This document shows, piece by piece, positions 7,961 through 35,402 of a DNA stretch of 64,000 nt. Below the pieces are notes generated by a model. It ran no database searches. It saw only the letters and a list, made by a program, of their open reading frames with translations, and was not told where the DNA came from. Both the position numbers and the translations under genes were made by a program. Where the stretch lies: the NCBI GenBank assembly GCA_029944565.1, contig GCA_029944565.1_4115.1; one strand, written 5' to 3'. This DNA comes from a phage. The stretch's first letter is position 1; each line of letters opens with the position of its first letter.

Positions 7961-7975
7961 CTCTAGTTAAAATCA

Positions 7976-8003: not shown

Positions 8004-8008
8004 AGCCA

Positions 8009-13122: not shown

Positions 13123-13127
13123 TTGTT

Positions 13128-14462: not shown

Positions 14463-14661
14463 ATATTCTCTTCTGGATTAGTTCCTGTAAGTGCTGAATA
14501 TAACCCTTCATTGCAACATCCTGTTTGTTAGAGCCAACGAAGAACAAGAGCTTAAAGTCATGGTAATCCATTTTTGGTTTAGTAGTGAACCATATGTCCC
14601 ACACTGCACTCACAGTTCTCATGTATTCAATTCGATTAAATGTTTTTGAATACTTCATCAA
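14440..14661 (-). CDS. small hypothetical protein, family B-like
   Basis: variant FVGSNKQDV. Confidence 0.45.
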   Translation of the reverse strand: MMKYSKTFNRIEYMRTVSAVWDIWFTTKPKMDYHDFKLLFFVGSNKQDVAMKGYIQHLQELIQKRIYENNRPK

Positions 14662-15172: not shown

Positions 15173-15618
15173 TCGAATGTAGCCTCTTCAGTAGTAACAA
15201 AATTGGTTAGTGTATCCAGTTCAGCAGTGTCAAGATAAAATACATCTAGTACAGATTTCTGATATATTACACTGAATGTGCATAGATTGTCAAGTGTTCC
15301 TTGTTCATAAACAGTACTACCCTGGAAGTACCCTTCTTCAGTACTCAGGGATAAAATATCTGAAATTTTAAAAGATTCTTCAGTTGCATGTCTTTCTATA
15401 TTAACTATATTGCCGTTTCGGTTCAATGAAATATAATCGTATGCTAACTCAATTAGACTATAATTATCCGCATTAGTGTCAAATAAAGCGACAATTTTTC
15501 GTCTCAATCTCTCATCGTGATCATGGTTTTCATCAGCTAAGTATTCAGGATTTTCTTTGAAGAATTTAACGACGCGTAGAATATCATTTGCTTTCTTGAT
15601 TGCACTTTCGTAACTCAT
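15169..15618 (-). CDS. hypothetical protein, family A paralog
   Basis: motif EEGYFQGSTVY. Confidence 0.6.
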   Translation of the reverse strand: MSYESAIKKANDILRVVKFFKENPEYLADENHDHDERLRRKIVALFDTNADNYSLIELAYDYISLNRNGNIVNIERHATEESFKISDILSLSTEEGYFQGSTVYEQGTLDNLCTFSVIYQKSVLDVFYLDTAELDTLTNFVTTEEATFE

Positions 15619-15923
15619 AATAATTCAACCACTCCATCTCTAAAGTACATATAACTACCACCATTGGATACTGTGAATTCTATTGTCCCCAATAATATAT
15701 TATATTTTTTTATTTCACATGTAGTACTTGTAGTGTAAGGCTCACCATCTCCTAAGTACATTGACATATGACATAGAACTTTTCTACCAGCATATTTCTC
15801 TTCAAACGATTGTTCAAAACTATGCATAATTTGATTTAAAGCTGAAATGTAATTAATAAAGTCAGGTATTTCTGTCAATGAATTATAAACCGTACAAAGT
15901 GAATCAAATTCATTTTTAGTCAT
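15615..15923 (-). CDS. hypothetical protein
   Basis: 102-aa ORF; no module. Confidence 0.5.
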   Translation of the reverse strand: MTKNEFDSLCTVYNSLTEIPDFINYISALNQIMHSFEQSFEEKYAGRKVLCHMSMYLGDGEPYTTSTTCEIKKYNILLGTIEFTVSNGGSYMYFRDGVVELL

Positions 15924-16237
15924 TATATTTCTATCTCAATGTAATCCTGTGTGATTAAATAATCCCAATGATACTTCACCTGCTTTTGTAATTCAATTAA
16001 CGTAAAGAAGTTGATCGATTTATCCCATACGAGAGATTCCTGGAAAATAAATGATTCATGTTCATCGTAATAATCACACTCTAAAAAATCAGGTATATAT
16101 TCACTATCGTGAATGTATTCAACAAACGAACTAGCTTGGCATTTCTTTACTACTAGTAATAATGAATTATCATGATCAAACAGATACAATAAACTAATTT
16201 CACCAGGGACGTACTGAACACTGAATAAGTTTTTCAT
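15923..16237 (-). CDS. hypothetical protein, family A paralog
   Basis: motif ESFIFQESLVW. Confidence 0.6.
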   Translation of the reverse strand: MKNLFSVQYVPGEISLLYLFDHDNSLLLVVKKCQASSFVEYIHDSEYIPDFLECDYYDEHESFIFQESLVWDKSINFFTLIELQKQVKYHWDYLITQDYIEIEI

Positions 16238-16686
16238 TCTATACCTTCTGGATCTTTACGAAGTTCTTCGAAATCCAAATAAAATCGAGGACAGTTAACA
16301 CTCTTTAAGTACCACATAATAACTAATGCTTCAAGTACTTCATCATCGTAAACAGTACTGTTTTGGAAGTAATACTCTTCACTATCCCACGGACCTTCCA
16401 GTACTTCATAATTCAAAATTAATGGTTTTTTGCGATTAATAAAACGAATGCTACCATTTTCAACATAACTAATAAATTCTGCATCTCTATTGTATTCAGA
16501 AAACGATATAGGACTATTGGAATTCAACCCAAGAATAACCCTTACACCAACGGAGTTATTATACATTTCATCCTTGTAGTAGTTGCCGTTCTCGGCTTTG
16601 TACACTTCTTTGAACTTTCCTGCCTTTATATCGTCAAAGTATCCATGTAGTTCTTTTGCTTTTTCAAGAGCACTTTGTAATGACAT
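16234..16686 (-). CDS. hypothetical protein, family A paralog (MSLQSALE subgroup)
   Basis: motif EEYYFQNSTVY; N-term MSLQSALEKAK. Confidence 0.6.
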   Translation of the reverse strand: MSLQSALEKAKELHGYFDDIKAGKFKEVYKAENGNYYKDEMYNNSVGVRVILGLNSNSPISFSEYNRDAEFISYVENGSIRFINRKKPLILNYEVLEGPWDSEEYYFQNSTVYDDEVLEALVIMWYLKSVNCPRFYLDFEELRKDPEGIE

Positions 16687-17152
16687 TACCTTCTCCTACA
16701 GTATTCTCTACATATTCATAATCAAAATAGAAACTACTGGAGTCAATACTTTTGAAATACCACATAATTACAATAACATCTAATTCTTCTTCATTGTACA
16801 ACGTACTATTCTGGAAGTAATATTCTTCACTATCCCACGGTCCTTCCAGTACTGAATAAGGAATGATAGTGTCATCAGCATCACTATCTGTGTTGTAGAT
16901 GGTAATATCTTCATTACGGCAATAACTAATGTACTGATTGTACATATGATATTCACAGTTATCACTGTCACCAGTATCAGTGTGCAGTACTAATGTTTCT
17001 GCACATATCTCGGACTCGTCATAATCGTCACGGTCTTTTACAAAAAATTCAGTATCAGATGTTTTATATACACCTGGTACTGAACCTTCCTGTACCATAA
17101 TCATGTACTCATGAATCTTCTTTGCTTCTTTCAATGCACTTTGTAATGACAT
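16664..17152 (-). CDS. hypothetical protein, family A paralog (MSLQSALE subgroup)
   Basis: motif EEYYFQNSTLY. Confidence 0.6.
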   Translation of the reverse strand: MSLQSALKEAKKIHEYMIMVQEGSVPGVYKTSDTEFFVKDRDDYDESEICAETLVLHTDTGDSDNCEYHMYNQYISYCRNEDITIYNTDSDADDTIIPYSVLEGPWDSEEYYFQNSTLYNEEELDVIVIMWYFKSIDSSSFYFDYEYVENTVGEGNVITKCS

Positions 17153-17596
17153 TACAAATCCCCTGTACTTAAATATTCACATGCTCCCCAGTCAAGAAAG
17201 AATGGTTCAAAATTCAATTCCTTAAAGTACCACAACACAACCAAGGAATCAAGAATTTCTTGGTTAAAAATGAGACTCTGTTGGAAGTAATACTCTTCAG
17301 TACCCCACGGGCCATCAAGTACCCCGAAGTCAACAGGTGTATTTGTTGTGTCAAAAGTAATCTTAGTACCTGGAATATATACAAAAAAAATTAGTATATT
17401 GACTACATGAAGAGTACTGTATAGTATTGTCTTTATCCTGTCCCATAAGTAAAATATCATCAGAGTATGTCTTTATACCTGATAGATAATACTCATTACC
17501 AAATGCACTTACTTTATCACCATAGAAACCACTTTTTATGTTATCGTGGAAGTGATGTATTCTGTGTGCTAGTTCAAGTGCACTTGCTAAACTCAT
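17152..17596 (-). pseudogene. family A paralog split by frameshift
   Basis: N-terminal ORF 17363..17596 (MSLASALE...) and C-terminal ORF 17152..17460 (EEYYFQQSLIF) overlap out of frame at A8/T8 run 17383-17390. Confidence 0.5.
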
Positions 17597-18063
17597 ATAT
17601 CCTCTTTAATAACTCGTAGTAGATCCAAGTCCAAATAGAAGCTAGGACAATCTGTATTATTAAAGTACCACAGAATGACAAGCTTGTCAAGTACATCTTC
17701 CTCGTAGATAGTATTCTGCTGGAAGTAGTACTCTTCACTTCCCCAGTCATTATCCAGTACTGAATACGGAAGATGTTTCTCTGCTGCACCAGATATAATG
17801 TCAGAATCTTGTATTAAAATATCAGCATCACGACAGAAGTACATGTAATTATCTTCCAAATTAACATCACACCCATTGAGTGTTGTTTCAGAAGAATCTA
17901 AGTTTTCTTCATACATGTGAATGTACTCACTACTGTCATCGTATCTCATTCGACAATATGATTTACCTTCCTTGAATAGATATCCATTAAGACAATTTGC
18001 TACAATTTCTTTGCTGCATAAATCAATTAACTTCGCAATCTCTAATGCTCTTTCTAAACTCAT
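17593..18063 (-). CDS. hypothetical protein, family A paralog (MSLQSALE subgroup)
   Basis: motif EEYYFQQNTIY. Confidence 0.6.
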   Translation of the reverse strand: MSLERALEIAKLIDLCSKEIVANCLNGYLFKEGKSYCRMRYDDSSEYIHMYEENLDSSETTLNGCDVNLEDNYMYFCRDADILIQDSDIISGAAEKHLPYSVLDNDWGSEEYYFQQNTIYEEDVLDKLVILWYFNNTDCPSFYLDLDLLRVIKEDI

Positions 18064-18064
18064 T

Positions 18065-18556
18065 TCAACCCCTGTTAATACCGTTATCTACAGTTTTCTT
18101 TACGTATTTGTAATCGAAATAGAAGTTCCCAGAACCAATACTTTTAAAGTACCACATAATTATAATAACATCAAGTACTTCATTATCATATACAGTACTT
18201 TGTTGGAAGTAATACTCTTCACTATCCCACGGACCTTCCAGTACTTCACTCGGAATTATAATGTCATTGGAATCGCTGTCAGTACTGTTGATGGTATCTG
18301 TATCATTAATATAGACCATGTACTCATTATGCATATTAATGAAGCATTCATAATCATTAGGGTCGGTATCTAGTATGCACGTTTCTGTATCCAGTACGCA
18401 CGTTTCTGTATCTGAGCAGTCATTATAAAGGAGGTTATCCGGTACATAATATTGAGTACTTGTGTCTTTGAAAACACCGTAAACTGAACCTTCTTTTGCC
18501 ATATTCATGTACTCATGAATCTTCTTTGCTTTTTCCAATGAACTCTGTAATGTCAT
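18065..18556 (-). CDS. hypothetical protein, family A paralog (MSLQSALE subgroup)
   Basis: motif EEYYFQQSTVY. Confidence 0.6.
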   Translation of the reverse strand: MTLQSSLEKAKKIHEYMNMAKEGSVYGVFKDTSTQYYVPDNLLYNDCSDTETCVLDTETCILDTDPNDYECFINMHNEYMVYINDTDTINSTDSDSNDIIIPSEVLEGPWDSEEYYFQQSTVYDNEVLDVIIIMWYFKSIGSGNFYFDYKYVKKTVDNGINRG

Positions 18557-18565
18557 TTTATAATC

Positions 18566-18925
18566 TCATATATTGAAATAATAATTATTCGTTCTTGATG
18601 GGGATGGATTAAATACGTTTTCTTTTTCAAATCTCTTCATTTCATTTTGCAAAGAAACCATTTCTTCAAATGTACAGGAGTACTTATTCTTATCAAACAC
18701 TAATGCAGCCTGAAATAGTTCACCATCGTCCAGTACTGTATAATCTATAAGACTCTCAGATTCATAGTCATAGTCGTCATGTGATACATGAATAAATTTA
18801 AAACAAGAATCTTTGTAATGCATATATAAACTCAACTCATGTTCCGAGTCGCCCTTAATAAGATTACAGCACAAGTCCCATCCTTTAGGTAACTTATAAT
18901 AGTACATAGAATAATCATATGTCAT
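18566..18925 (-). CDS. hypothetical protein, family A paralog
   Basis: motif DGELFQAALVF. Confidence 0.6.
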   Translation of the reverse strand: MTYDYSMYYYKLPKGWDLCCNLIKGDSEHELSLYMHYKDSCFKFIHVSHDDYDYESESLIDYTVLDDGELFQAALVFDKNKYSCTFEEMVSLQNEMKRFEKENVFNPSPSRTNNYYFNI

Positions 18926-19278
18926 TCTTGAATTCCTAAATTGAATTTGTATTCTTGATTAATACTTGCATTGGGTTTATGCAAAGCAGCATACTCTTTC
19001 ATTTCATTTTGTATTGCAATAACTTCTTCAAATGTACACAAGTACTTCTTATCAAATACTAATGATTCTTGGAATAGTTCTGCGGTATCCATTAATGTAT
19101 AGTCCGGCATATCTTGGTGTGGATACTGTAATGAACTGTAATCAATGAATGTAAATTTACCCTGAGTGTAATGAATATACTCATTTGCACTGTGCATTAA
19201 ATCACCTTTGTTTAAATTACAAAAGTACTGATAACTGTGCTTGAAAGTATGTACTGATATTAAAAAATCAAATTCCAT
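18922..19278 (-). CDS. hypothetical protein, family A paralog
   Basis: motif TAELFQESLVF. Confidence 0.6.
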   Translation of the reverse strand: MEFDFLISVHTFKHSYQYFCNLNKGDLMHSANEYIHYTQGKFTFIDYSSLQYPHQDMPDYTLMDTAELFQESLVFDKKYLCTFEEVIAIQNEMKEYAALHKPNASINQEYKFNLGIQE

Positions 19279-19649
19279 CAGTACTCAACCTCTACATAAA
19301 TAGATTCAGGAAACTTAGTCATATAATCTTCTGGATAGTTCTGCATTACTTTGATCATTTCTGCCTGTGTAGCACGGACGTATTCAATTGGTGCTCCTGG
19401 TAAATTCCAGACAGTACTTTCCTGAAAGAATTCCTCTTCTGACAGTACTGTCAGATTTACAAAATCATTACGGTAATTTTTTGAATCATCATATGTGAAG
19501 ATTTTAAAAGACCCATTTTCATATAGTACAAGAACAAAATGGGAGAATTTTTGTAATGCACCACCAAGGCTTTCCACGACCGCATGATTCAGTGTACAGA
19601 TGACCTCTTTTTTCCTCATACCGAATTGAATTCTAATTTCTTTTTTCAT
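19278..19649 (-). CDS. hypothetical protein, family A paralog
   Basis: motif EEEFFQESTVW. Confidence 0.6.
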   Translation of the reverse strand: MKKEIRIQFGMRKKEVICTLNHAVVESLGGALQKFSHFVLVLYENGSFKIFTYDDSKNYRNDFVNLTVLSEEEFFQESTVWNLPGAPIEYVRATQAEMIKVMQNYPEDYMTKFPESIYVEVEY

Positions 19650-19807
19650 AAAATCTCCTTCAGATTAGTACTGAATTTGTACAGAATATTAGAACTGTAT
19701 ACAGCCTCTGTATCTGTATCCATAATCAAATCACCTTTGTTTAAATTACAAAAGTACTGATAACTGTGCTTAAAAGAATGTACTGATATTAAAAAATCAA
19801 ATTCCAT
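19646..19807 (-). pseudogene. truncated duplicate of the N-terminus of 18922..19278
   Basis: ~85-bp direct repeat of 19195-19280 at 19727-19810 gives a 53-aa ORF MEFDFLISVHSFKHSYQYFCNLNKGDL... lacking the module. Confidence 0.45.
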
Positions 19808-20184
19808 CACACTTCCCCTAGATTGAAATGATTACAAAAATCATCTTCACCAGTACTGCACCAGATATCTATACATTCCCTGTGAATACATTTAATTCTA
19901 CGCTGTAATTCAATCATCTCTTCTAATGTACAGATGTACTTCTTATCAAATACTAATGCCGCCTGAAACAGTGCAGCATCATCAAGTACTGTATAGTCCA
20001 ACATCTCGGTTGCTTTACCCCTAAACCCAGTACTAAAATCCATCAAATAAAAGTCAGCATTCCAGTACTTTAAAATCTTGTCCCTAGCGTAGTTTAAATC
20101 ACCCTTGTATAAGTTAGAGTGCGTAACTAACTCACCAGTGTACATCCATGTCCTTGCACAAAATTCATTATATTTTATTTCCAT
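19807..20184 (-). CDS. hypothetical protein, family A paralog
   Basis: motif DAALFQAALVF; start taken at MEIKYNEF by analogy with paralogs, track ORF extends further. Confidence 0.55.
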   Translation of the reverse strand: MEIKYNEFCARTWMYTGELVTHSNLYKGDLNYARDKILKYWNADFYLMDFSTGFRGKATEMLDYTVLDDAALFQAALVFDKKYICTLEEMIELQRRIKCIHRECIDIWCSTGEDDFCNHFNLGEV

Positions 20185-20383
20185 CTTAATCTCTACTATA
20201 ATTAATAAGGTAAACTCCAATATAAGGAGAACGTTCGCCAGCGGGGTATTTTTTGTTTCAAGAAACATGAACTGTACTCTGAAAAACACAATATAAAACT
20301 TTATATTAAACATATACCTTAGCATGTTTTTCAGCGGAAATTTTTTTGACCCCCCCCCTGCGGCCTGTCAAAATGAAACGTCT

Positions 20384-20608
20384 CTATTTATTCAGCCTAG
20401 AAACCTTGATTTCTTCAATCCTTTTCATTGCACAAAGCCTTCGACTCGTCCTCTCGTATATATTCAATACTCGCTGTAATGCATTATCTGTATTATCTGC
20501 AACTGCAATCTGAACCAAATATGTATCCTTCAAAATAGAATCCATCATGAATTCAAAACCTTTCACACTAAAGCAATATGCCACTTCCGGCTCTTCAAAC
20601 GTAATCAT
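20384..20608 (-). CDS. hypothetical protein
   Basis: 74-aa ORF. Confidence 0.45.
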   Translation of the reverse strand: MITFEEPEVAYCFSVKGFEFMMDSILKDTYLVQIAVADNTDNALQRVLNIYERTSRRLCAMKRIEEIKVSRLNK

Positions 20609-20798
20609 AATTCCAATCCCCTATTCCCTCTAACCTTCTAAGATATCTTGCGTAAATTATTTCGAAATATCTGTGCAACGAAATTACGGATTGCTCATAA
20701 TCATCATTCCTGTACATTGTGCATGTCAGAAAATCATTTAACCCAAAATCTAAACTGCACTTGAACTTCTCCTTAGCAACATCTCTAAAATTATTCAT
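20595..20798 (-). CDS. hypothetical protein
   Basis: 67-aa ORF. Confidence 0.45.
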   Translation of the reverse strand: MNNFRDVAKEKFKCSLDFGLNDFLTCTMYRNDDYEQSVISLHRYFEIIYARYLRRLEGIGDWNYDYV

Positions 20799-20980
20799 AA
20801 TATGTCCTCTGTACAGCGTAGGTGTACTGTGAACTCAGCACCACTAATAGGTAATCTATATTGTAAGCACGATTTCCTCGTTGACTAGCACGGCTGGAAT
20901 AAAGAATATTATCCACATATGTATTGAACTGATCTTCAAATAACTCTTTCATCAGCATTATACCATCACATAATCATACA

Positions 20981-21523
20981 TCATACATTAACAACTTTAT
21001 CGATGTAATCTTCTAACATATCAATATATCTGGTATTGGTTCTAACTAAAAGGTATGCAAATCCAGAAAACTCCTGTGTATAATGCTTTACAGCGTACAT
21101 ACAACGAAGCTTATCATTGTCATACATTGTACTGTACTGAAACAAACTCTCGTCTGATAGCTCTAATAACGCTTGGGCTTCACTTCTCGTGAACTTCATA
21201 GGGTCATGTACTGCATCACAAAAACAAACCTGTGTCTCGCTATTGAAACCCTGTGATAGATATATACCTTCACACTCTGAACGCACCGATACTGCATTAT
21301 AACTATGTGTTGCCCCCATCATATCTGAACTCAAAACTAAAATCAACCCATTTTTATTTTTAATCAACAAATCTGACTTAAGGGATTTGATCTCCGTATG
21401 GGAAATATCACCAAATCTTCCTGGGACTTCAAACTTATCAACGTTGTATACAATCTTTTGTACTTGCTCTTTTAAACGCTTAATTGCACTTCTGTCTTTT
21501 TCTAATGTATCTAATAAACTCAT
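20981..21523 (-). CDS. hypothetical protein, family A paralog
   Basis: motif DESLFQYSTMY; start at MSLLDTLEK (internal Met of track ORF). Confidence 0.55.
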   Translation of the reverse strand: MSLLDTLEKDRSAIKRLKEQVQKIVYNVDKFEVPGRFGDISHTEIKSLKSDLLIKNKNGLILVLSSDMMGATHSYNAVSVRSECEGIYLSQGFNSETQVCFCDAVHDPMKFTRSEAQALLELSDESLFQYSTMYDNDKLRCMYAVKHYTQEFSGFAYLLVRTNTRYIDMLEDYIDKVVNV

Positions 21524-21533
21524 TGTACTTTCC

Positions 21534-28703: not shown

Positions 28704-29013
28704 TAGGCTCCTGTTTAGATTCTTTCATTAGTACTATCATCTTATGTACTAATGGCATAGGAAACTCTAAATCCCATACTAATGATTCCTGAAAGTATTC
28801 CTCTGGTGATAAAGTACTTAAATCTTTAATATCAACGTGCTTGTATATTTTATTTTCGTAATTAACAAATGATATATATAAATCACTAACATAAGAATCA
28901 TAGGTAATTGTGAATGGCTTACCCTTGTAATCCATTACATCTCTACATAGACTACTTTTGATATATGTATGTTCAAATGATTTATATACCTTGAGTTGTA
29001 TATTAGTTTTCAT
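28669..29013 (-). CDS. hypothetical protein, family A paralog
   Basis: motif PEEYFQESLVW. Confidence 0.6.
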   Translation of the reverse strand: MKTNIQLKVYKSFEHTYIKSSLCRDVMDYKGKPFTITYDSYVSDLYISFVNYENKIYKHVDIKDLSTLSPEEYFQESLVWDLEFPMPLVHKMIVLMKESKQEPNGDYEEHTVEY

Positions 29014-29278
29014 ATTTCTCTTTATTAGCTTGTTTGGTTTTATAGTGAATTAAATCTATTAATGTAATCAAGTACAACGTCAAATAGTACTCTTGTTGAT
29101 CTGTACCTAATGATACAAAGAACTTGTGCTCATAGATTAAAACCTGTTTCTCTTCAAATGGACATTTAATCCTCTGTATAGGCTTAAGTAAATGATAGTA
29201 CTTATTAAATCTATGATACATTTCTAGTTCTGTCAGTACTTTCATATTAAACACATACTCCATTAGCAGTAGCATCAC
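29003..29278 (-). CDS. small hypothetical protein, family B paralog
   Basis: motif SLGTDQQEY. Confidence 0.5.
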   Translation of the reverse strand: MMLLLMEYVFNMKVLTELEMYHRFNKYYHLLKPIQRIKCPFEEKQVLIYEHKFFVSLGTDQQEYYLTLYLITLIDLIHYKTKQANKEKYEN

Positions 29279-29468
29279 GTAAAGCTGTCAAATACTTCTG
29301 TACGGCTTGCTCTTGCTTATTTGTACCTAAAAGTATATACATCCATAATTCACTGTAATGTACATCTTGTGTATAAGGGTCATTGTAACTTTTTGATAAT
29401 ATAGCATCAAATTCAGATGCATAATCCCTTGTGAACTTAAACATATCTTGTTGTGTTATGATTCTCAT
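29247..29468 (-). CDS. small hypothetical protein, family B paralog
   Basis: motif LLGTNKQEQ. Confidence 0.5.
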   Translation of the reverse strand: MRIITQQDMFKFTRDYASEFDAILSKSYNDPYTQDVHYSELWMYILLGTNKQEQAVQKYLTALRDATANGVCV

Positions 29469-29680
29469 AACTTTTCCTGTATAAGCTTCTTAAGTATTTC
29501 TATGTGTGAATTAACAGTTCTTTCTTGATGCTGTGTTCCTAAGAGTGTCAGTACTATCATCTCTGAACGCAAAAGATTTTTTTCAAGTTCACTTATATCA
29601 GTTCTTGAATCAAGTGCCATATATTTGTGATTATTCTTCCTGAATAGTGCCAAGTACTCTTGGTTTGATATTATCTTCAT
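29465..29680 (-). CDS. small hypothetical protein, family B paralog
   Basis: motif LLGTQHQER. Confidence 0.5.
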   Translation of the reverse strand: MKIISNQEYLALFRKNNHKYMALDSRTDISELEKNLLRSEMIVLTLLGTQHQERTVNSHIEILKKLIQEKL

Positions 29681-29892
29681 AGTTTACTTTTAATTTCCAT
29701 TAAAAGTGCTCTAATGTGCTCATTGACAAAACGCTCTTGGGAATCTGTGTCTAGGGTGAGAAGCATTCTTAAATCTGAACCTCTGATGGTATATTCTAAA
29801 TCATTCTTTGATTCTCGCATAAGTTTCTGAAAGGATGAGAAGTGTAATCCCATGAGTTCAATGTATTCTGCTGTTCCTAGTGGTTTTGGCAT
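29677..29892 (-). CDS. small hypothetical protein, family B paralog
   Basis: motif TLDTDSQER. Confidence 0.5.
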   Translation of the reverse strand: MPKPLGTAEYIELMGLHFSSFQKLMRESKNDLEYTIRGSDLRMLLTLDTDSQERFVNEHIRALLMEIKSKL

Positions 29893-30104
29893 TTTAGTTC
29901 AATCGCTCGTTTAAGTGTATTAATATAATCATTAATATCGTATTCTTGATAGTTAGTTCCCAGGGTAGCTAGAACATAGATTTCATTTCTCTTAATAATT
30001 TTATCCATATCTGGTATATCTGATGTGTTAATAACAAACAACTTCAAAAACAATCCATTTATAATTGTTAGGTATTCTTCGTCGGTAATCATTCGCATTT
30101 GCAT
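29877..30104 (-). CDS. small hypothetical protein, family B paralog
   Basis: motif TLGTNYQEY. Confidence 0.5.
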   Translation of the reverse strand: MQMRMITDEEYLTIINGLFLKLFVINTSDIPDMDKIIKRNEIYVLATLGTNYQEYDINDYINTLKRAIELKCQNH

Positions 30105-30310
30105 CTTCTCAGTACTGATTCTTTAAGTTCATTGATGTAGCACTCTACATATTCTTCTTGTAGGTTTGTTCCGATATGTAACAGTACTCTTAAATCTGCT
30201 CTCAGTACTTCTTTATCATCTTCATCTATATCAGACAGTGTTATGTTTAAGAATTTACTTGAACTCTCTATAAGTAATATTACTGAATCACCTTTGCTTA
30301 AAATTTTCAT
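30089..30310 (-). CDS. small hypothetical protein, family B paralog
   Basis: motif HIGTNLQEE. Confidence 0.5.
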   Translation of the reverse strand: MKILSKGDSVILLIESSSKFLNITLSDIDEDDKEVLRADLRVLLHIGTNLQEEYVECYINELKESVLRRCKCE

Positions 30311-30518
30311 AATCTCTTTTTGCTTTCCTCGCCAAAAGGTACATATACGATTCTTCGTATTGTGCTTGGTAGTTTGTGTTTAAGAGTCGAAACAACTTCT
30401 GTTCTGCTAGAACGAGTTGCTTATCTTCATAACAACGATAGCGTATCAACTTTTTGTATTCGATGTTGATTACATCCATTACTATAAGCCCATGTTCATC
30501 ATCTGTCAAGTGTTTCAT
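30288..30518 (-). CDS. small hypothetical protein, family B paralog
   Basis: motif LLNTNYQAQ. Confidence 0.5.
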   Translation of the reverse strand: MKHLTDDEHGLIVMDVINIEYKKLIRYRCYEDKQLVLAEQKLFRLLNTNYQAQYEESYMYLLARKAKRDYENFKQR

Positions 30519-30757
30519 GCATTTTTTCTTTTTCTTATATGTTTAGTTAAAAGGTATATTAGTTTTCTATTGTATTCTTCCTGATAGTTTGTTCCTAATA
30601 GTGCAAGAAGTTTTGCTTCAACTAAAGCTAATTGACGTTCTTCAAATGTGTGTTCCAGTATGTACTTTGGGTTTGATTTTTTAGCGTAAGCACTATTAGT
30701 CTTCATTACAATCTTATGATATTCATTAGCAGTTAGGATTTTTAAATACTTGATCAT
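30515..30757 (-). CDS. small hypothetical protein, family B paralog
   Basis: motif LLGTNYQEE. Confidence 0.5.
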   Translation of the reverse strand: MIKYLKILTANEYHKIVMKTNSAYAKKSNPKYILEHTFEERQLALVEAKLLALLGTNYQEEYNRKLIYLLTKHIRKRKNA

Positions 30758-30977
30758 GTATCTTTTCCTTTATAGAGAATTTAAGATATCGAAGCATACT
30801 TTCAATGTAATACTCTTGTCTGTCAGTGCCAAGAAAGTACATGAGTTGAATGTATAAAACTTCTGCACTCCTTTCCGCTGGAGACTTGTTTGTGTCGTTT
30901 TGAAGTTGATTTGTATGTTTTCTTGATTTAATTAGTCGTTCTTTTAACTCATCGTCTGTTAAGTATTTCATTTGCAT
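30726..30977 (-). CDS. small hypothetical protein, family B paralog
   Basis: motif FLGTDRQEY. Confidence 0.5.
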   Translation of the reverse strand: MQMKYLTDDELKERLIKSRKHTNQLQNDTNKSPAERSAEVLYIQLMYFLGTDRQEYYIESMLRYLKFSIKEKIHDQVFKNPNC

Positions 30978-31203
30978 TTACTTTTTCCTTAATAGTGATT
31001 TTAAGATATCTAATCATACGTGCAACATATTCCTCTTGTCTATCAGTTCCCAGAAGATATGGTAGTGATTGGAATAATACTTCTGCACTCCTTTCTGCTG
31101 GGGTTTGGTTTAGGTCAATTGGACGTTTATTGGTATATCTCTTGGCACGAACTAATCTCTCGACGTATTCATTATAGGTTAAGTATATCATTTCATTTTG
31201 CAT
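30949..31203 (-). CDS. small hypothetical protein, family B paralog
   Basis: motif LLGTDRQEE. Confidence 0.5.
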   Translation of the reverse strand: MQNEMIYLTYNEYVERLVRAKRYTNKRPIDLNQTPAERSAEVLFQSLPYLLGTDRQEEYVARMIRYLKITIKEKVNANEILNRR

Positions 31204-31439
31204 TTAATGTTCCTTACATGAATTGTCTGGATTAAACAATCAATCCAAGTTTGAACATATCTTGTTTGATATTGTGTTCCTAAGAGACTCTGCATTTTAA
31301 ACTCTGTTTCCAGTTCATATCTCTTTTCTATAGAAAAGCTTAAATGACCATATTCCTTTTCGTATCTTTTCAGAGCTTCCCCCATTCTGGCAAAACTTTC
31401 TGCTAAGTCGATTTTATTAATTTTATTCATAGTATTCAT
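31188..31439 (-). CDS. small hypothetical protein, family B paralog
   Basis: motif LLGTQYQTR. Confidence 0.5.
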   Translation of the reverse strand: MNTMNKINKIDLAESFARMGEALKRYEKEYGHLSFSIEKRYELETEFKMQSLLGTQYQTRYVQTWIDCLIQTIHVRNIKCKMK

Positions 31440-31726
31440 CGATCAGTACACCTTAGTGGTTGGGTCATTTGATAAAAGTACAGCTTACCTTTGATTTCCA
31501 GTAGTAACTCCGCGATTAAGCGATTTACTTCTGTATCTTGATAGTTTGTTCCTAAGAATACACCCATCTTTAACTCACGCATCATAATCATTTTCTTACT
31601 GTGTTGAATTTCTGGGTTGTGATAGATTGTATTACGTTTGTGCGTAATTTTTGTCATACGCTCGGTATATTCATCTTTACTTAAATTGATCATTTGCATG
31701 TTCATCAACCTCACATTTATTTTCAA
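31436..31726 (-). CDS. small hypothetical protein, family B paralog
   Basis: motif FLGTNYQDT. Confidence 0.5.
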   Translation of the reverse strand: MKINVRLMNMQMINLSKDEYTERMTKITHKRNTIYHNPEIQHSKKMIMMRELKMGVFLGTNYQDTEVNRLIAELLLEIKGKLYFYQMTQPLRCTDR

Positions 31727-31728
31727 TA

Positions 31729-31995
31729 CTATTCTTTAGTTTGTAGATATAGTTTTCTTCCAATGTATCTCTTAAGTGCGATTATGTATTCATCTACATA
31801 ATACTCCTGATAGTTTGTTCCTATGAATGCACCCACCTTTAACTCAAGTTTCATAATCATCTTATTTCCGTGTTTAATGACTTCTCCGTGATGGATTTCA
31901 TTAAGTCCAGGTGCAATTTTCACCAGGCGTTCTTTATATTTTGCTTGAGATAATTTAATCATTTTCATGTTAATTACCCTTACATTTATTTTCAA
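31729..31995 (-). CDS. small hypothetical protein, family B paralog
   Basis: motif FIGTNYQEY. Confidence 0.5.
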   Translation of the reverse strand: MKINVRVINMKMIKLSQAKYKERLVKIAPGLNEIHHGEVIKHGNKMIMKLELKVGAFIGTNYQEYYVDEYIIALKRYIGRKLYLQTKE

Positions 31996-32200
31996 TACTA
32001 TTCATGAGTTCTATAAGATAGTTTTCTACCTTACCTTCCTGATAGTTAGTCCCTAGGAAGTTGCACAACACGGCTTCTATGATTTTGATTTTCCTGATAT
32101 CAGGCTTCAATCTTTTGTTATTGAATATTTGAATCCTTATATCTCTGGATGCATTTAAACGTTTTTGATATTCATGGTAAGTTAAATGAATCATTTTCAT
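31970..32200 (-). CDS. small hypothetical protein, family B paralog
   Basis: motif FLGTNYQEG. Confidence 0.5.
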   Translation of the reverse strand: MKMIHLTYHEYQKRLNASRDIRIQIFNNKRLKPDIRKIKIIEAVLCNFLGTNYQEGKVENYLIELMNSIENKCKGN

Positions 32201-32415
32201 TTACGTTTAACCTCTCGCTGGAGGGCATCAATTAACATCAGTACAGCATTCTCTTGATAGTTTGTTCCTAAGACTGAAAGCATCTTTATCTCATTTACTA
32301 AAATCAACTTCTTTGAGGGTTCAATAATGTGACTATCATAAACGGCCTTACGTGCTGGATAAGTTTTCGCCAGTATAACATAAAATTCGTCTTTACTTAA
32401 ATTAATCATTTGCAT
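32197..32415 (-). CDS. small hypothetical protein, family B paralog
   Basis: motif VLGTNYQEN. Confidence 0.5.
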   Translation of the reverse strand: MQMINLSKDEFYVILAKTYPARKAVYDSHIIEPSKKLILVNEIKMLSVLGTNYQENAVLMLIDALQREVKRK

Positions 32416-32624
32416 TTACTTTTAACCTCTTTCTGTAGAGCGTCAATCCATAGATCTACATACATTTGTTGATAGTTTGTGCCTAAGAGTGCACCTACAT
32501 AGAGTTCAGTTACTAGTGCGTGCTTAAGGTTAGCTTGGATGCTCTTATCGCTTGATATCATTCTCCTTCTGCTTCCACATGTTTTCAGGAGTCTGATGTA
32601 TTCAAAGCCTTGTAAATTTCTCAT
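32406..32624 (-). CDS. small hypothetical protein, family B paralog
   Basis: motif LLGTNYQQM. Confidence 0.5.
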   Translation of the reverse strand: MRNLQGFEYIRLLKTCGSRRRMISSDKSIQANLKHALVTELYVGALLGTNYQQMYVDLWIDALQKEVKSKCK

Positions 32625-32836
32625 ATTTTGGATACTACCTTGTTACGTAAGGAACTTAATAATACGTCAGTGTAGATGTTTTGATAGTTTGTCCCTACGA
32701 ATACACCCAACTTCATTTCAGCTATTATAACACATTTGTCCTCTTGTGCAATAGATTTGTTTAACACAATACTATACACTTTTGATTTGATAGTTTGTAA
32801 CCTCCAATGATACTGATACTCATTAAGGATTATCAT
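32621..32836 (-). CDS. small hypothetical protein, family B paralog
   Basis: motif FVGTNYQNI. Confidence 0.5.
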   Translation of the reverse strand: MIILNEYQYHWRLQTIKSKVYSIVLNKSIAQEDKCVIIAEMKLGVFVGTNYQNIYTDVLLSSLRNKVVSKI

Positions 32837-33071
32837 TCTCTTTCCTCCAGATTTCGGTTCTCATGTGTTGGCAGTGTGCATCAATATATTGCTCTATCGA
32901 TCTGGCGATTGCTGTTTTATCAGTGCCTGTCATCAGTACAAGCATCTCGGCCTCACAGTGAAGTAAACGCATGATATCATAGGGTAATATTTCAGATACC
33001 GTGTCATAGTGTTTCTGTGCCAGTGTCTGCAATAGTTTACAATACATTTTGTGATTTAGTCTTTGTCGCAT
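32823..33071 (-). CDS. small hypothetical protein, family B-like
   Basis: variant MTGTDKTAI. Confidence 0.45.
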   Translation of the reverse strand: MRQRLNHKMYCKLLQTLAQKHYDTVSEILPYDIMRLLHCEAEMLVLMTGTDKTAIARSIEQYIDAHCQHMRTEIWRKENDNP

Positions 33072-33328
33072 TGTTTATTCCATTCTTTTTTGGCTCTCTG
33101 GGTTTTATATTGGATTTGGTTTCTTAATGATGCCAAGTATCGTTGAATGAACAGATCTTGATAGTTTGTTCCAATGAATTTCATAAGATAAACATCACCG
33201 TTGATAACATCCACTTCAGGTGCACCATGTAATACATTGTTTTTTCTAAGGGTGTTAATAAGAGAGAAGAGGGCAGTTTGATACTCAACTCCTGATAAAG
33301 TCTTCATGTTTTGCGAGCCAATATTCAT
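33056..33328 (-). CDS. small hypothetical protein, family B paralog
   Basis: motif FIGTNYQDL. Confidence 0.5.
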   Translation of the reverse strand: MNIGSQNMKTLSGVEYQTALFSLINTLRKNNVLHGAPEVDVINGDVYLMKFIGTNYQDLFIQRYLASLRNQIQYKTQRAKKEWNKQCDKD

Positions 33329-33548
33329 CTAGTTTATCCTGTATAACATTCATTAATTGATCGACAAATTCTTTGCAAAACTTATCTTGATATTGAGTCC
33401 CCATAAAGTACAGCAACCATAGCTCATTAACTTTAGCTCGCATTTGGTTCCATGTAAGGGTGGGGTCATCGTAGATTACTCTTGCTTCTGGGGTGAGCTT
33501 TCGAATTCTAAGTGAATATTCATCTTGTGTTAAGTATTTCATTTGCAT
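33285..33548 (-). CDS. small hypothetical protein, family B paralog
   Basis: motif FMGTQYQDK. Confidence 0.5.
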   Translation of the reverse strand: MQMKYLTQDEYSLRIRKLTPEARVIYDDPTLTWNQMRAKVNELWLLYFMGTQYQDKFCKEFVDQLMNVIQDKLDEYWLAKHEDFIRS

Positions 33549-33697
33549 TTGTCCATAATGTAATTCTTGAGTGCAACTATGTGTTCATGGATATAAAAAT
33601 TCTGATGAGAAGTTCCAAGAAAGTACAGCATCCATCCCTCACTCTGCTCGACTTCTAGTTTAGTATCGAGTTGGTCAGATATGTTAATGAAAACCAT
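33539..33697 (-). CDS. short family B member (52 aa), possibly truncated
   Basis: motif FLGTSHQNF; below ORF-track cutoff; start shares duplicated 45-bp block with neighbour. Confidence 0.4.
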   Translation of the reverse strand: MVFINISDQLDTKLEVEQSEGWMLYFLGTSHQNFYIHEHIVALKNYIMDKCK

Positions 33698-33954
33698 TAG
33701 TTCTTTTCCTTTCTTTCTATTTGTTTCATAAGAACATTGATATACTCACCCGCAAACCTATTCTGATACTGCGTCCCCATGAATTCCAACATCCATACTT
33801 CAGCAACCTTTTCTTCAATTTCAGTCCATTGTAAGTACATCATAGTGAAGTAAATGGTGTTCTCTTTTTTTCTGGCACTCTTAGCACGGGCCTCGTATTC
33901 AAAGTTATTAATGATGTTCATTACATTTGTCCATAATGTAATTCTTGAGTGCAA
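33697..33954 (-). CDS. small hypothetical protein, family B paralog
   Basis: motif FMGTQYQNR. Confidence 0.5.
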   Translation of the reverse strand: MHSRITLWTNVMNIINNFEYEARAKSARKKENTIYFTMMYLQWTEIEEKVAEVWMLEFMGTQYQNRFAGEYINVLMKQIERKEKN

Positions 33955-34135
33955 CTATGTGTGCAATAACATACTCTTCCTGGAAGTTCGTCCCCAGTAC
34001 AGCCATCATGCGTTTATCGGTGGTGTTTATCCTGTGTTCCCTTACACATAAACCTTCTTTGTGAGGAAGTGTAAAATATTTGTTTATTGCAGCTATGATA
34101 ATTTTATTCTTCTCTATATTACTTAAATGTTTCAT
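33908..34135 (-). CDS. small hypothetical protein, family B paralog
   Basis: motif VLGTNFQEE. Confidence 0.5.
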   Translation of the reverse strand: MKHLSNIEKNKIIIAAINKYFTLPHKEGLCVREHRINTTDKRMMAVLGTNFQEEYVIAHIVALKNYIMDKCNEHH

Positions 34136-34344
34136 AGTTTACTCTTAATGTAGTTCTGAAGTTCAATTAAGTATTTCCCTACATAATACTCCTGAAAGTC
34201 TGTATCCAAAAATGCACCCATAAGTAAATCCTTCTCCATTGCCCTTGATAAGTTAAGGTCTGCATTTGAAAGGTATATAAGTAATATTTCAGTCTGGACA
34301 GAATTAAAACGTTTCTTATATTCTTCAGGTGTTAATATAATCAT
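34132..34344 (-). CDS. small hypothetical protein, family B paralog
   Basis: motif FLDTDFQEY. Confidence 0.5.
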   Translation of the reverse strand: MIILTPEEYKKRFNSVQTEILLIYLSNADLNLSRAMEKDLLMGAFLDTDFQEYYVGKYLIELQNYIKSKL

Positions 34345-34556
34345 AATTTGCTCCTGATGTATTTCTCAAGAGATGACAAATACTTTTCCTCATAATACTC
34401 CTGATAGTCTGTTCCCAAGAATGCACCCAAAAGTATTTCATTTTCCAATACCTCGGCTAAGTTTAAATCAGACGTCTCTTCGTATATTATGAGGATTTCA
34501 AGTTGTCTGGCAGCGATGCGTTCAGTATATTGATATGAGTTTTCTATAATAATCAT
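34341..34556 (-). CDS. small hypothetical protein, family B paralog
   Basis: motif FLGTDYQEY. Confidence 0.5.
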   Translation of the reverse strand: MIIIENSYQYTERIAARQLEILIIYEETSDLNLAEVLENEILLGAFLGTDYQEYYEEKYLSSLEKYIRSKL

Positions 34557-34762
34557 ATTTTACTCTTAATATCTTCTATTAAAAATCGAATCCATTCTTC
34601 AACATAATCTTCCTGATGGTTTGTGTTCAGTACAGCCAACATGCGGATCTCTGCTCTTGCAACTTCAATTTCAGTTTTAGGCAGGTCTTTGCTGATATCC
34701 ACCATTAAGTCCATGTATTTCAAGATAAGACCGTATGATTGGGTTCGTGTTATAGTTTTCAT
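34553..34762 (-). CDS. small hypothetical protein, family B paralog
   Basis: motif VLNTNHQED. Confidence 0.5.
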   Translation of the reverse strand: MKTITRTQSYGLILKYMDLMVDISKDLPKTEIEVARAEIRMLAVLNTNHQEDYVEEWIRFLIEDIKSKI

Positions 34763-34959
34763 TGTTTCCTCGTGGACAATATTTTATTTTTCAATGTATC
34801 CATATATTGCCACACCCATCTACCCTGATAGTTTGTTCCCAATGTAATCAAAAGGTATAACTCCATTCGTTCTACGTGTGTGTCTGTGTTGTAAATCTTT
34901 ACGTAGTTTTTACGTAACAGTGATTGATATTCTTCTTTATTTAAAATACGCATTTTCAT
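34759..34959 (-). CDS. small hypothetical protein, family B paralog
   Basis: motif TLGTNYQGR. Confidence 0.5.
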   Translation of the reverse strand: MKMRILNKEEYQSLLRKNYVKIYNTDTHVERMELYLLITLGTNYQGRWVWQYMDTLKNKILSTRKQ

Positions 34960-35153
34960 AGTTTACTCGTTATATCTTCAATTAAATACCAAATCCAATC
35001 GTTGACATACCTTTCCTGAAAGTTAGTTCCAATGAATAGTGCCATAATTAATTCACGCTTATAGGCAATACCACGGTCATGGGACTTATACATTATCATA
35101 GCCATGTTATTGATAAGTCTTTCGTGGTGCTGTTCTTTAGTTAAAATACGCAT
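34956..35153 (-). CDS. small hypothetical protein, family B paralog (first gene of array)
   Basis: motif FIGTNFQER; start at MRILTKEQ with SD aagggag, track ORF extends 10 codons further. Confidence 0.5.
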   Translation of the reverse strand: MRILTKEQHHERLINNMAMIMYKSHDRGIAYKRELIMALFIGTNFQERYVNDWIWYLIEDITSKL

Positions 35154-35183
35154 AGGGACTCCCTTAAAATTAATATCAATCAT

Positions 35184-35211
35184 ATTTTATACGATTCATA
35201 TAAAAAGTCAA
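35184..35211 (-). promoter_or_regulatory. sigma70-like promoter of the family B array (TTGACT-16-TAAAAT)
   Basis: hexamers on minus strand upstream of 34956..35153. Confidence 0.5.
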
Positions 35212-35402
35212 TAACATTTTATTCGTAATACCCCTTTATCGAAGTCGCTAAGGTTACCCGCCCTTTAGCCCCCTACGCATTTTGCCATAGTCCAATCCCT
35301 TTTATTTCAAAAAAGTCAAGGGATTACCTATGCATTTTTTTAACGCATAATTTTAAAAACGCCTTGACTTTTTTCTGAATCAGTACTAGATCCCTTTACG
35401 CA
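35212..35402. promoter_or_regulatory. repeat-rich upstream region of the family B array
   Basis: four ACGCAT-type repeats (ctacgcatttt, ctatgcatttt, aacgcataatttt, ttacgcattaat), inverted repeat TATGC-N11-GCATA, 8-bp stem aatccctt/aagggatt. Confidence 0.4.

Follow-up and report, generated by a model that had tools for sequence, protein, structure and literature searches.

The stretch of phage DNA analysed here (64,000 nucleotides; the window) derives from an Asteriusvirus, a jumbo coliphage like PBECO4, 121Q and G17, and carries on its minus strand 28 contiguous genes of one family of small proteins (family B; 29003..35153) that is practically limited to the Asteriusvirus group. These genes are real and under selection, and the sequence comparisons support the view that the locus grew by tandem expansion long ago, in this lineage only, and has diversified. 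As for function, the explanation we favour, at a probability of roughly 45%, is that the products are early, non-structural and diversified small binders that serve host takeover or counter-defence.

Extent and setting of the array

The ORFs of the window were listed in six frames, and the family HMM was run on every ORF of at least 35 aa. The 28 array genes (E from 1e-18 to 1e-27) and exactly four dispersed genes were found, with no match among the other ORFs of that size (Table 1). An earlier note on this DNA had proposed ~27 tandem paralogues of 70-90 aa at 29003-35183; the array itself stands, yet its exact count is 28, and the products, small as claimed, range from 52 to 87 aa in the main array after their starts were refined by alignment fit and annotation of relatives. 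The four further members placed inside the array of a second family (family A) correspond to the dispersed matches at 14271-14661 and 27248-27702.

Table 1. Family B genes and neighbouring features in the window
Feature	Position	Strand	Basis
Member 1, 65 aa	34956..35153	-	HMM; start refined
Member 2, 66 aa, ATGA overlap	34759..34959	-	HMM
Member 3, 69 aa, ATGA overlap	34553..34762	-	HMM
Member 4, 71 aa, ATGA overlap	34341..34556	-	HMM
Member 5, 70 aa, ATGA overlap, 50% identity to member 4	34132..34344	-	HMM
Member 6, 75 aa, ATGA overlap	33908..34135	-	HMM
Member 7, 74 aa	33697..33921	-	HMM
Member 8, 52 aa, truncated, without most of helix 1	33539..33697	-	Alignment
Member 9, 87 aa	33285..33548	-	HMM
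Member 10, 83 aa	33056..33307	-	HMM
Member 11, 82 aa, divergent motif MTGTDKT and insertion	32823..33071	-	HMM, alignment
Member 12, 71 aa	32621..32836	-	HMM
Member 13, 72 aa, ATGA overlap	32406..32624	-	HMM
Member 14, 72 aa	32197..32415	-	HMM
Member 15, 76 aa, ATGA overlap	31970..32200	-	HMM
Member 16, 79 aa, used for structure model	31729..31968	-	HMM
Member 17, 87 aa	31436..31699	-	HMM
Member 18, 83 aa, ATGA overlap	31188..31439	-	HMM
Member 19, 84 aa	30949..31203	-	HMM
Member 20, 83 aa, 50% identity to member 19	30726..30977	-	HMM
Member 21, 80 aa	30515..30757	-	HMM
Member 22, 76 aa, ATGA overlap	30288..30518	-	HMM
Member 23, 73 aa	30089..30310	-	HMM
Member 24, 75 aa	29877..30104	-	HMM
Member 25, 71 aa	29677..29892	-	HMM
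Member 26, 71 aa, ATGA overlap	29465..29680	-	HMM
Member 27, 73 aa, ATGA overlap	29247..29468	-	HMM
Member 28, 80 aa, end of array	29003..29245	-	HMM
Dispersed member 29, 72 aa	27484..27702	-	HMM
Dispersed member 30, 88 aa	27248..27514	-	HMM
Dispersed member 31, 73 aa, motif variant GSNKQ	14440..14661	-	HMM
Dispersed member 32, 63 aa	14271..14462	-	HMM
Candidate sigma70-type promoter, TTGACT-16 nt-TAAAAT	35184..35211	-	Scan; hexamers conserved in 8 relatives
Shine-Dalgarno AAGGGAG and spacer before ATG at 35153	35156..35166	-	Sequence; conserved in relatives
GC-rich block across inner terminal-repeat boundary	35245..35310	-	Conserved in all relatives compared

Adjacent array genes overlap at 24 of the 27 junctions: 11 by the 4-nt ATGA, which had been described as frequent, one by 1 nt and 12 by 10-32 nt, the remaining three being gaps of 1, 29 and 1 nt. 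All array genes share one orientation and read away from the genome end at ~55511. The 3′ end of member 28 overlaps the start of a family A gene (28669-29013) by 11 nt, and the transcription unit probably continues into two family A genes.

The promoter match upstream of the array (35211..35184) scores 10 of 12 against the sigma70 consensus; as 46 sites were found in this AT-rich DNA versus 44.7 expected, this score alone is at the level of chance. Both hexamers and the Shine-Dalgarno sequence are nevertheless kept in eight of eight relatives, JNE01 with its diverged flanks among them. The site proposed in the earlier note is thus present and conserved; that it is the sole driver of the array is plausible but unproven. 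Because no terminator is predicted between the upstream terminal-repeat promoters and the array, read-through from those promoters may also transcribe it. For the first gene, the most likely start is the ATG at 35153, after AAGGGAG; 35183 is disfavoured because the −10 hexamer abuts the ATG there.

The direct terminal repeat is ~20 kb long, with its inner boundary at ~35256 as mapped from the annotation of vB_Ec-M-J; from this boundary, the promoter and the first gene lie, respectively, ~45 and ~100 nt into the unique region. In PA5oct, a related jumbo phage, the genes of the terminal repeat belong to the early class and depend on host RNA polymerase for their transcription (PMC7318152), and by analogy the array may be early as well. 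The array promoter is, however, weaker than, and unlike, the stereotyped perfect sigma70 promoters within the terminal repeat, so its timing could be middle rather than immediate-early.

Selection, divergence and turnover

Concatenated array orthologues compared with those of four phages (over 1,100 codons in each comparison) gave dN/dS of 0.36-0.45, and 0.32-0.40 in a second test; that of neighbouring terminal-repeat genes was 0.17. A few array genes reach dN/dS of ~1 or more, on short alignments only, and since the overall value is below 1 a strong arms-race signal is not demonstrated. Reading frames and overlaps of the array are conserved across 36 genomes. TRF detected no DNA-level tandem repeat in the array, and recurrence at the DNA level is restricted to a ~20-nt stretch coding for the family motif; the array is therefore not a repeat artefact, an outcome that the earlier note had named as a possible refutation. 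That these are spurious ORFs or decayed repeat relics is extremely improbable: the genes are short and annotated merely as hypothetical proteins, but dN/dS stays below 0.5 in every one of these long comparisons, frames and overlaps are retained in all 36 genomes, HMM E-values go down to 1e-27 and the fold prediction (below) is very confident, so that the selection and structure results together contradict such a reading.

Identity between paralogues averages ~30%, with a maximum of 50% in the joint closest pairs (members 19/20 and members 4/5), and synonymous sites between paralogues are saturated; neighbouring paralogues are only slightly more similar than non-neighbours (P=0.0016). Across genomes, each paralogue is maintained as a distinct orthologue; clustering at 65% identity gave 60 clusters in nine genomes, with order largely conserved. 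Copy number in the main array, which the earlier note had suggested comparing, ranges from 19 to 29 in the nine genomes, and the differences are single-gene gains, losses and swaps. For example, the position of member 18 holds an unrelated paralogue in G17, PBECO4, Turkey3 and 121Q. Members 21 and 22 are fused in one metagenomic ORF (P0097). Identity to G17, gene by gene, jumps between 100% and 42-80%, which indicates gene-scale mosaicism. Compared with JNE01, the terminal-repeat proteins are 84-100% identical, whereas the array proteins have best matches of 27-69%; the break in similarity is located at the junction of terminal repeat and array, with a near-complete change of repertoire.

Of the two pressures originally suggested for this amplification, diversification is supported by the ~30% identity, the spread of pI (4.3-9.9), the separate orthologues and the turnover between lineages, whereas dosage is not supported: recent duplicates and DNA-level repeats are absent, and copy number changes by single genes only. 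A 'gene accordion', in which the copies raise the amount of one activity, would account for the high copy number itself, but is highly improbable: recent amplification is rejected because no two paralogues exceed 50% identity, their synonymous sites are saturated and each is preserved as a distinct orthologue, and both near-identical copies and tandem DNA repeats (TRF) are absent.

Predicted fold and database relatives

The motif read from the sequence by the earlier note, LGTNYQExYVxxxIxxLxxxI, was reproduced by the alignment consensus of family B, in which T51, Q54 and L65 are each found in 31 of 32 members. The structure prediction also called for there yielded, for member 16, a confident AF2 model (pLDDT 96.5, pTM 0.82, from an alignment of only 32 sequences) of a three-helix bundle, with helices at residues 8-27, 33-47 and 54-78 and a bridge from residue 4 to 51. 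The conserved columns make up a single hydrophobic stripe on each helix, together with the G-T-N-Y-Q-E turn; the other columns, mostly exposed, show near-maximal entropy, and length also varies in helix 1b and the loop. The polar columns E10, E42, E55 and K72 are conserved beyond the needs of the hydrophobic core, and synonymous codons are unusually conserved within the motif. The pI of members runs from 4.3 to 9.9, with ~20 of 32 basic (pI >8) and a third acidic. Neither a transmembrane segment (GRAVY −0.45) nor, in the 32-member alignment, a conserved Cys or His was found in family B. The C-terminal helix of the truncated member 8 matches that of member 6 (repeat family D7).

As modelled, a family B protein would be a soluble up-down-up three-helix bundle of ~75 aa, in which the N-terminal strand, the Gly ending helix 2 and the Thr-x-x-Gln cap starting helix 3 meet at one conserved pole. 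LGTNYQE would supply that Gly end and cap; variation would be tolerated in the loop between helices 1 and 2, on the exposed faces of the helices and in the C-terminal tail. As G-x-T-x-x-Q/E is a classic combination of a helix C-cap with an N-cap, the motif may be conserved for structural reasons alone; alternatively, T51 and Q54 may do more than cap a helix and belong to an active or binding site common to the family.

Among database families, PHROG 4148 matched 31 of 32 members over the full length (best E 9.3e-27, profile positions 1-72 of 74), and PHROG 28039, a fragment family of the C-terminal half, matched 16 of 32. Both are phage orthologous groups with no annotated function, and the PHROG 4148 entry, a sequence cluster only, gives no function, structure, tandem organisation or placement beside the terminal repeat. 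No Pfam family had matches in two or more members (best E 0.002), the best hit of a PDB profile search had an E of 8.8 and Foldseek of the model against PDB returned no match with E <1; none of these four resources provided a function from fold or sequence relatives. No detectable homology links family B to the SUKH, SuFu or Imm families, and PADLOC gave scattered single matches only, none of them consistent. A virion or inner-body protein family was rejected on the finding that no product of the phAPEC6 array (gp467c-gp489c) is among 62 virion proteins identified by mass spectrometry, in which small proteins are easily missed (PMC7247149).

Possible functions and comparison with known systems

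Under the favoured explanation, the 28 genes would be co-transcribed from the conserved host-type (sigma70) promoter just inside the left direct terminal repeat and translated by coupling, which is proposed because nearly all junctions overlap. The products would be non-virion accessory proteins acting early in infection, each paralogue binding its own target, either a host protein or one from a competing element, and neutralising or redirecting it; the early timing, the binding and the nature of the targets are inferred. The diversity of the repertoire would stem from ancient duplication and divergence, from recombination of gene-sized segments between phages, and from gains and losses. A further elaboration, to which a rather small probability is given, is a germline-encoded binder library on one rigid three-helix scaffold with a conserved docking pole and hypervariable faces; with the co-inherited family A it would form a two-part system that recognises many variable host immunity proteins and hands them over to a shared partner for inhibition or degradation. 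If true, the phage would possess an analogue of a diversified receptor repertoire, and the codon conservation in the motif would represent a recombination or conversion anchor for shuffling gene halves.

Also doubtful is an adaptor repertoire, in which the conserved pole (N-terminal strand, E10/Y11, E42 and G-T-N-Y-Q-E) docks onto a common partner (for instance a host protease or RNA polymerase, or else the family A proteins inherited along with it) and the variable surfaces recruit different targets. The near-invariant T51 and Q54 and the four polar columns conserved beyond core needs are consistent with it, as are the interleaving of families A and B in a deeply divergent metagenomic relative and the in-frame fusions of a B domain to a larger protein in phages UB and EC.P1. 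The motif is, however, textbook helix capping; A and B genes in the window adjoin block-wise, without pairing or 1:1 adjacency; and the profile-profile comparison, in which the two families show no detectable relation, and the low-confidence family A model are silent on interaction. Co-inheritance of A and B would also fit an immunity-type array that neutralises phage-encoded (for example, family A) or bacterial toxins, which may be bacteriocins or contact-dependent or abortive-infection toxins, and conflict systems are known to contain immunity paralogues of this kind, small and divergent, in tandem (PMC3482391, PMC3113570). No toxin domain is recognisable in family A or nearby genes (Pfam and PHROGs yield nothing with an annotated function, and the neighbours have no Pfam domains), toxin-immunity adjacency is absent and PADLOC offers no consistent match, which leaves this reading quite improbable.

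An action directed at rival phages or mobile elements, and not at the defences of the host, would draw on the same evidence as the favoured explanation (non-structural products that diversify and turn over, with early timing presumed), and nothing sets it apart from host-directed action; we regard such a superinfection function as unlikely, as membrane or exclusion-type features are missing (GRAVY −0.45, no transmembrane segment). A slim chance is likewise given to a family of small regulators, acting in transcription or by binding DNA, that would adjust the phage's own temporal programme. DNA binding is within the reach of small helical proteins, ~20 of the 32 members are basic, and an expanded putative transcription-factor family has precedent in a jumbo phage (PMC7824862); yet at 15-25 residues the helices are long, and they run antiparallel, unlike a helix-turn-helix, a third of members are acidic (pI down to 4.3) and no repeated operator-like sites were seen. 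An HTH or RHH fold was itself rejected, given the three long antiparallel helices and no Foldseek match to PDB with E <1.

Several known systems resemble the array. Bacillus phage G harbours a lineage-specific expansion of ~35 zinc ribbons, proposed as transcription factors or DNA-binding proteins (Iyer et al. 2021, PMC7824862), and is like family B a case of tens of copies of one very small domain in a jumbo phage, but family B has no conserved Cys or His, is of mixed charge and gives no DNA-binding fold signal. Immunity arrays of bacterial polymorphic toxin systems (PMC3482391, PMC3113570) also consist of runs of small, highly divergent paralogues at a conflict-type locus, whereas family B is without toxin gene or cassettes and resides in a lytic phage genome. 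Among large eukaryotic DNA viruses, the MGF110/360/505 families of ASFV and the terminal host-range families of poxviruses are, like the array, tandem and strongly diverged paralogues near termini; copy number and content vary similarly (19-29 here, with swaps, insertions and losses), and families A and B make up a large share of the genome, as those families do. For these viral families, roles in host range or immune evasion have been shown experimentally, and recent accordion-like copy-number change is documented in poxviruses. Such change is not seen in the family B array, and hosts and protein folds are unrelated.

Finally, the early blocks at the genome ends of the virulent phages T5, SPO1, T7 and PA5oct share with the array many small genes with no assigned function at or near a long direct terminal repeat. 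Such blocks include the T5 pre-early genes in the terminal repeat, the SPO1 host-takeover module and the T7 class I genes. They consist of unrelated genes, often with their own promoters, whereas the array comprises 28 genes of one family behind one candidate promoter just outside the repeat, and early timing, measured in those phages, is presumed for the array. The likeness lies in inward reading from the genome end and non-structural products, and perhaps in host-type promoters, that of the array being a candidate; beside the terminal repeat and transcribed inward, the array occupies the location of an early or takeover block.

Gene content and distribution of the family B array

A profile HMM built from the array of small, predicted three-helix proteins (family B) was run on all six-frame ORFs of at least 35 aa in the window. 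In the array stretch 28 contiguous members were recovered (E values from 1e-18 to 1e-27), one more than the approximately 27 counted in the earlier note, and exactly four further members were found outside it, all within the family A stretch as had been described. The alignment of the 32 sequences (A1) returned the consensus LGTNYQExYVxxxIxxLxxxI just as the note had written it, with a mean column identity of only 26%; T51, Q54 and L65 each occur in 31 of the 32 members. With start codons refined by agreement with the alignment and with the annotation of relatives, the proteins are 52–87 aa long, and 35153 is a more likely start for the first gene than 35183. ATGA overlaps, which had been called frequent, account for 11 of the 27 array junctions; the others are one 1-nt overlap, 12 overlaps of 10–32 nt and three gaps (1, 29 and 1 nt).

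That the motif might be a repeat-encoded artefact, as the earlier note had allowed, is excluded: Tandem Repeats Finder reported nothing on the array and recurrent DNA is limited to a stretch of ~20 nt coding for the motif, thus the array is not a repeat artefact. For concatenated family B orthologues, dN/dS was 0.36–0.45 over 1,144–1,742 codons (window versus four relatives); a second analysis based on reciprocal best hits gave 0.32–0.40 for family B and 0.32–0.42 for family A versus 0.17 for the adjoining terminal-repeat genes. Thus, family B genes experience purifying selection, about twice as relaxed as that on their upstream neighbours. Spurious ORFs are ruled out by the selection and predicted-structure results, and these gene-level facts are near certain.

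By megablast, the array stretch matched 36 phage records, all from jumbo phages of Escherichia or Salmonella in the genus Asteriusvirus (including PBECO4, 121Q, G17 and CRJP21; best identity 93–96%), with every gene under the matches annotated as 'hypothetical protein'. Searches by tblastn with family B matched the same 36 phage records only; complete E. coli genomes gave no match. When 1.84 billion representative proteins were searched with the profile, only 96 matches were obtained, all of 52–122 aa but for a single 269-aa fusion; where a source is named, it is an Asteriusvirus phage or an 'E. coli' contig of ~350 kb which is itself one of those phages. Neither Pfam nor PADLOC gave a consistent match for family B, and PDB sequence profiles gave no usable one; phrog_4148 and phrog_28039 matched 31 and 16 of the 32 members, respectively, with function unassigned for both. 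Family B is PHROG 4148 and nothing more. No Rfam families or tRNAs were found in the window, and literature searches found no published description of the array.

Two fusions were encountered. In the 269-aa protein (P0093; phages UB and EC.P1), a family B domain is in frame with a ~200-aa protein whose homologue is free-standing in the Klebsiella phages RaK2 and K64-1. It was rejected as a functional clue, as this C-terminal part matches only the RaK2 and K64-1 hypothetical proteins and no family A profile. The other (P0097; 154 aa), from a metagenomic contig, joins members 21 and 22 in a single ORF.

Features of the window and their positions
Feature	Position	Strand	Remark
Family A stretch	1-29013	-	at least 35 of 54 ORFs with shared motif
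Dispersed family B member	14271-14462
Dispersed family B member	14440-14661
Dispersed family B member	27248-27514
Dispersed family B member	27484-27702
81-aa protein between the arrays	27994-28239	-	hydrophobic N-terminal segment
Main family B array stretch	29003-35183	-	28 contiguous members
Weak hairpin within the array	29420-29404
Motif codon bias, example	31538-31557		GGA ACA AAC TAT
Member 8, shared 3' segment	33530-33587
Member 6, shared 3' segment	33908-33965
GC-rich block	35245-35310		GGGATTGGACTATGGCAAAATGCGTAGGGGGCTAAAGGGCGGGTAACCTTAGCGACTTCGAT; 7-bp hairpin
Direct terminal repeat	~35256-55511		~20 kb
Stereotyped sigma70 promoters	36500-49000, intergenic gaps	-	TTGACA-AAGTATATCAGTACTG-TATAAT
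Right end of unique genome	55512-64000
Strand and GC-skew switch	~56 kb		physical genome end

Terminal repeat, promoters and family A

The record of the relative vB_Ec-M-J annotates direct terminal repeats at 1..21525, with the first family B gene from 21624. The repeat was placed in the window by aligning the left end, the inner repeat boundary and the right-end junction of that record. Since the last segment of the window corresponds to the right end of the unique genome, the repeat is collapsed in the source assembly. By this mapping the array starts just inside the unique region (~45 nt for its promoter and ~100 nt for the first ATG) and reads away from the genome end; consistently, in several other records the array lies 20–21.7 kb from the record end. 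Coding is on the minus strand throughout from 1 to ~55.5 kb, and the physical genome end coincides with the switch in strand and GC skew. The GC-rich block at the inner repeat boundary is kept in the divergent relative JNE01 despite diverged flanks, and may serve as a signal for the repeat boundary, packaging or replication.

Each of at least 12 small genes of the repeat has a perfect sigma70 promoter, nearly the same from gene to gene and conserved in its spacer; this class is presumably immediate-early and is distinct from the array promoter. The latter (TTGACT-16-TAAAAT/TATTAT) differs from the repeat class and is weaker, with hexamers, spacing and Shine-Dalgarno sequence kept in all eight aligned relatives; JNE01 is one of them, although identity in the intergenic DNA around the promoter is only 68% there. 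Terminator prediction gave no intrinsic terminator from the last repeat gene up to the array, and within the array only one weak hairpin; member 28 overlaps the first family A gene. The earlier proposal of one promoter driving the array is therefore plausible, with the transcription unit not delimited. PA5oct, a related jumbo phage, has early terminal-repeat genes that are host-RNA-polymerase-dependent (PMC7318152). Literature searches found no Asteriusvirus transcriptome.

Family A is the larger of the two multigene families; at least 35 of the 54 ORFs of 100–220 aa in its stretch share the motif (D/E)(D/E)(Y/L)FQxS(L/T)(V/I), and PHROG matches are only to entries without assigned function. 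The motif resembles the TEV protease site, ENLYFQ/S. Profile comparison detected no relationship between families A and B, and distant homology of the two via an aromatic-Gln motif was rejected (hhalign probability <1%). The AlphaFold2 model of a short family A member, a beta-sheet followed by two helices, is weak (pLDDT 64), too weak to serve as a structure-search query. On a metagenomic contig from a much more distant relative (L012; Logan SRR34023385_227669; 40.8 kb, 29% GC), 13 genes of family B and at least 18 of family A are interleaved at 2100-20200, and few other genes are in common with the window; thus, the two families are co-inherited across long evolutionary distances, while the individual paralogues are not. 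The 81-aa protein encoded between the arrays, unlike its neighbours, retains 60% identity in JNE01 and 49% in L012.

Predicted fold and divergence of the paralogues

Structure prediction, which the earlier note had suggested alongside the HMM search, gave a confident AlphaFold2 model for member 16 (pLDDT 96.5, pTM 0.82) from the 32 paralogues only, with three helices (residues 8–27, 33–47 and 54–78) and a one-residue bridge from an N-terminal strand to T51. The conserved columns comprise a hydrophobic stripe in each helix, the N-terminal M-K-x-L-T, E10/Y11, E42, K72 and the turn G50-T51-N52-Y53-Q54-E55. Most exposed positions are near maximal entropy, in particular residues 16–37 (second half of helix 1, loop and start of helix 2), where length varies too, and positions variable among orthologues coincide with those variable among paralogues (r=0.69). 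A Gly that ends helix 2, with Thr-x-x-Gln/Glu opening helix 3, amounts to a C-cap followed by an N-cap, so the LGTNYQE motif may be mainly structural. The proteins look soluble (GRAVY −0.45), with pI from 4.3 to 9.9 and no conserved Cys or His. Such variation in charge speaks against one nucleic-acid-binding or DNA-mimic role for all members and, together with the predicted fold, makes DNA binding of the helix-turn-helix type unlikely.

With all 32 members considered, synonymous codons for G-T-N-Y-Q are far more uniform than background: AAC for Asn in 16 of 17 (versus 31%), TAT for Tyr in 14 of 15 (versus 57%), GGA for Gly in 15 of 27 (versus 24%) and ACA for Thr in 20 of 30 (versus 39%). JNE01, 121Q and Turkey3 favour the same codons at these positions. 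As this uniformity coexists with paralogues that are saturated with substitutions, it points either to a constraint at the RNA or DNA level or to the motif as a seed of gene conversion. Systematic half-gene shuffling at the motif was dismissed as a dominant process (few discordant pairs, some of them artefacts).

Identity among paralogues averages 30% and reaches at most 50% (pairs 4/5 and 19/20). Neighbours are slightly more similar than random pairs (32.6% versus 29.8%; p=0.0016) and the closest paralogue is a neighbour for 8 of the 28 array genes, a faded trace of tandem duplication. Comparison of copy number among relatives, another check named in the earlier note, gave 19–29 genes in the main array; the 261 members from nine genomes fell into 60 clusters at 65% identity, with largely conserved order and single-gene insertions, losses and replacements. 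Divergence is uneven along the array: for example, identity to G17 is 100% for genes 1–3 and 11–16, and 99% for genes 4–5, yet falls to 64–80% at genes 6, 9 and 10 and to 42% at gene 18, and dS of adjacent genes within the same phage pair lies anywhere from 0 to ~1.0, a mark of recombination. Between JNE01 (L004) and the window, the 22 repeat proteins just upstream of the array are 84–100% identical, and conservation breaks exactly at the repeat/array junction (35256); best matches of array proteins are at 27–69% (mostly ~35%), and array and family A proteins are mostly <45% identical. A 58-nt 3' segment, 86% identical and coding for an identical HIVALKNYIMDKC helix, is common to members 6 and 8, although their N-terminal parts differ, a pattern suggestive of local gene conversion; the copy of 52 aa, member 8, is truncated yet kept in several phages.

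Candidate roles and comparison with known systems

The earlier note had proposed pressure for dosage or diversification. Dosage amplification was rejected, there being no recent copies, no DNA repeats and every copy retained as its own orthologue; diversification stands. Nor did a virion role find support: among the 62 proteins identified by mass spectrometry in phAPEC6 virions, none derives from its array (gp467c-gp489c; PMC7247149). Family B would thus be non-structural, probably early and diversified, its members built on a rigid scaffold whose faces vary, the pattern expected for binders of different proteins. A panel of small binders, each directed at a different host or competitor protein, is our leading reading, with a probability of roughly 0.45. 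The main variant of this reading, in which the proteins would be adaptors whose conserved pole contacts a common partner, is favoured by the polar residues that do not vary, by families A and B being inherited together and by the natural fusion of a B domain; we consider it unlikely.

Families A and B, which have no assigned function and whose relatives are confined to Asteriusvirus-like phages, occupy ~35 kb, about one-tenth of a 350-kb phage genome. This is a large investment for two families, adjoining the terminal repeat and the genes expected to act earliest, and its content changes fast between lineages while the repeat is nearly constant. Were the proteins host- or defence-directed binders, they would provide some 60 or more natural variants of one small, confidently predicted scaffold, among which screens could look for new inhibitors of E. 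coli or Salmonella functions or immune systems, and the array could help account for differences in host range among jumbo phages considered for therapy. Were they dispensable, tailed phages would still be shown to maintain long-lived terminal multigene families, as large eukaryotic DNA viruses do.

In placement, the array is like the early or host-takeover blocks of T5, SPO1, T7 and PA5oct, yet those consist of unrelated genes, unlike the one-family array here. In form, it is like the multigene families at the genome termini of ASFV and poxviruses, and like the expansion of a zinc ribbon to ~35 copies in phage G (PMC7824862). The family B array is a lineage-specific multigene family in a large virus.
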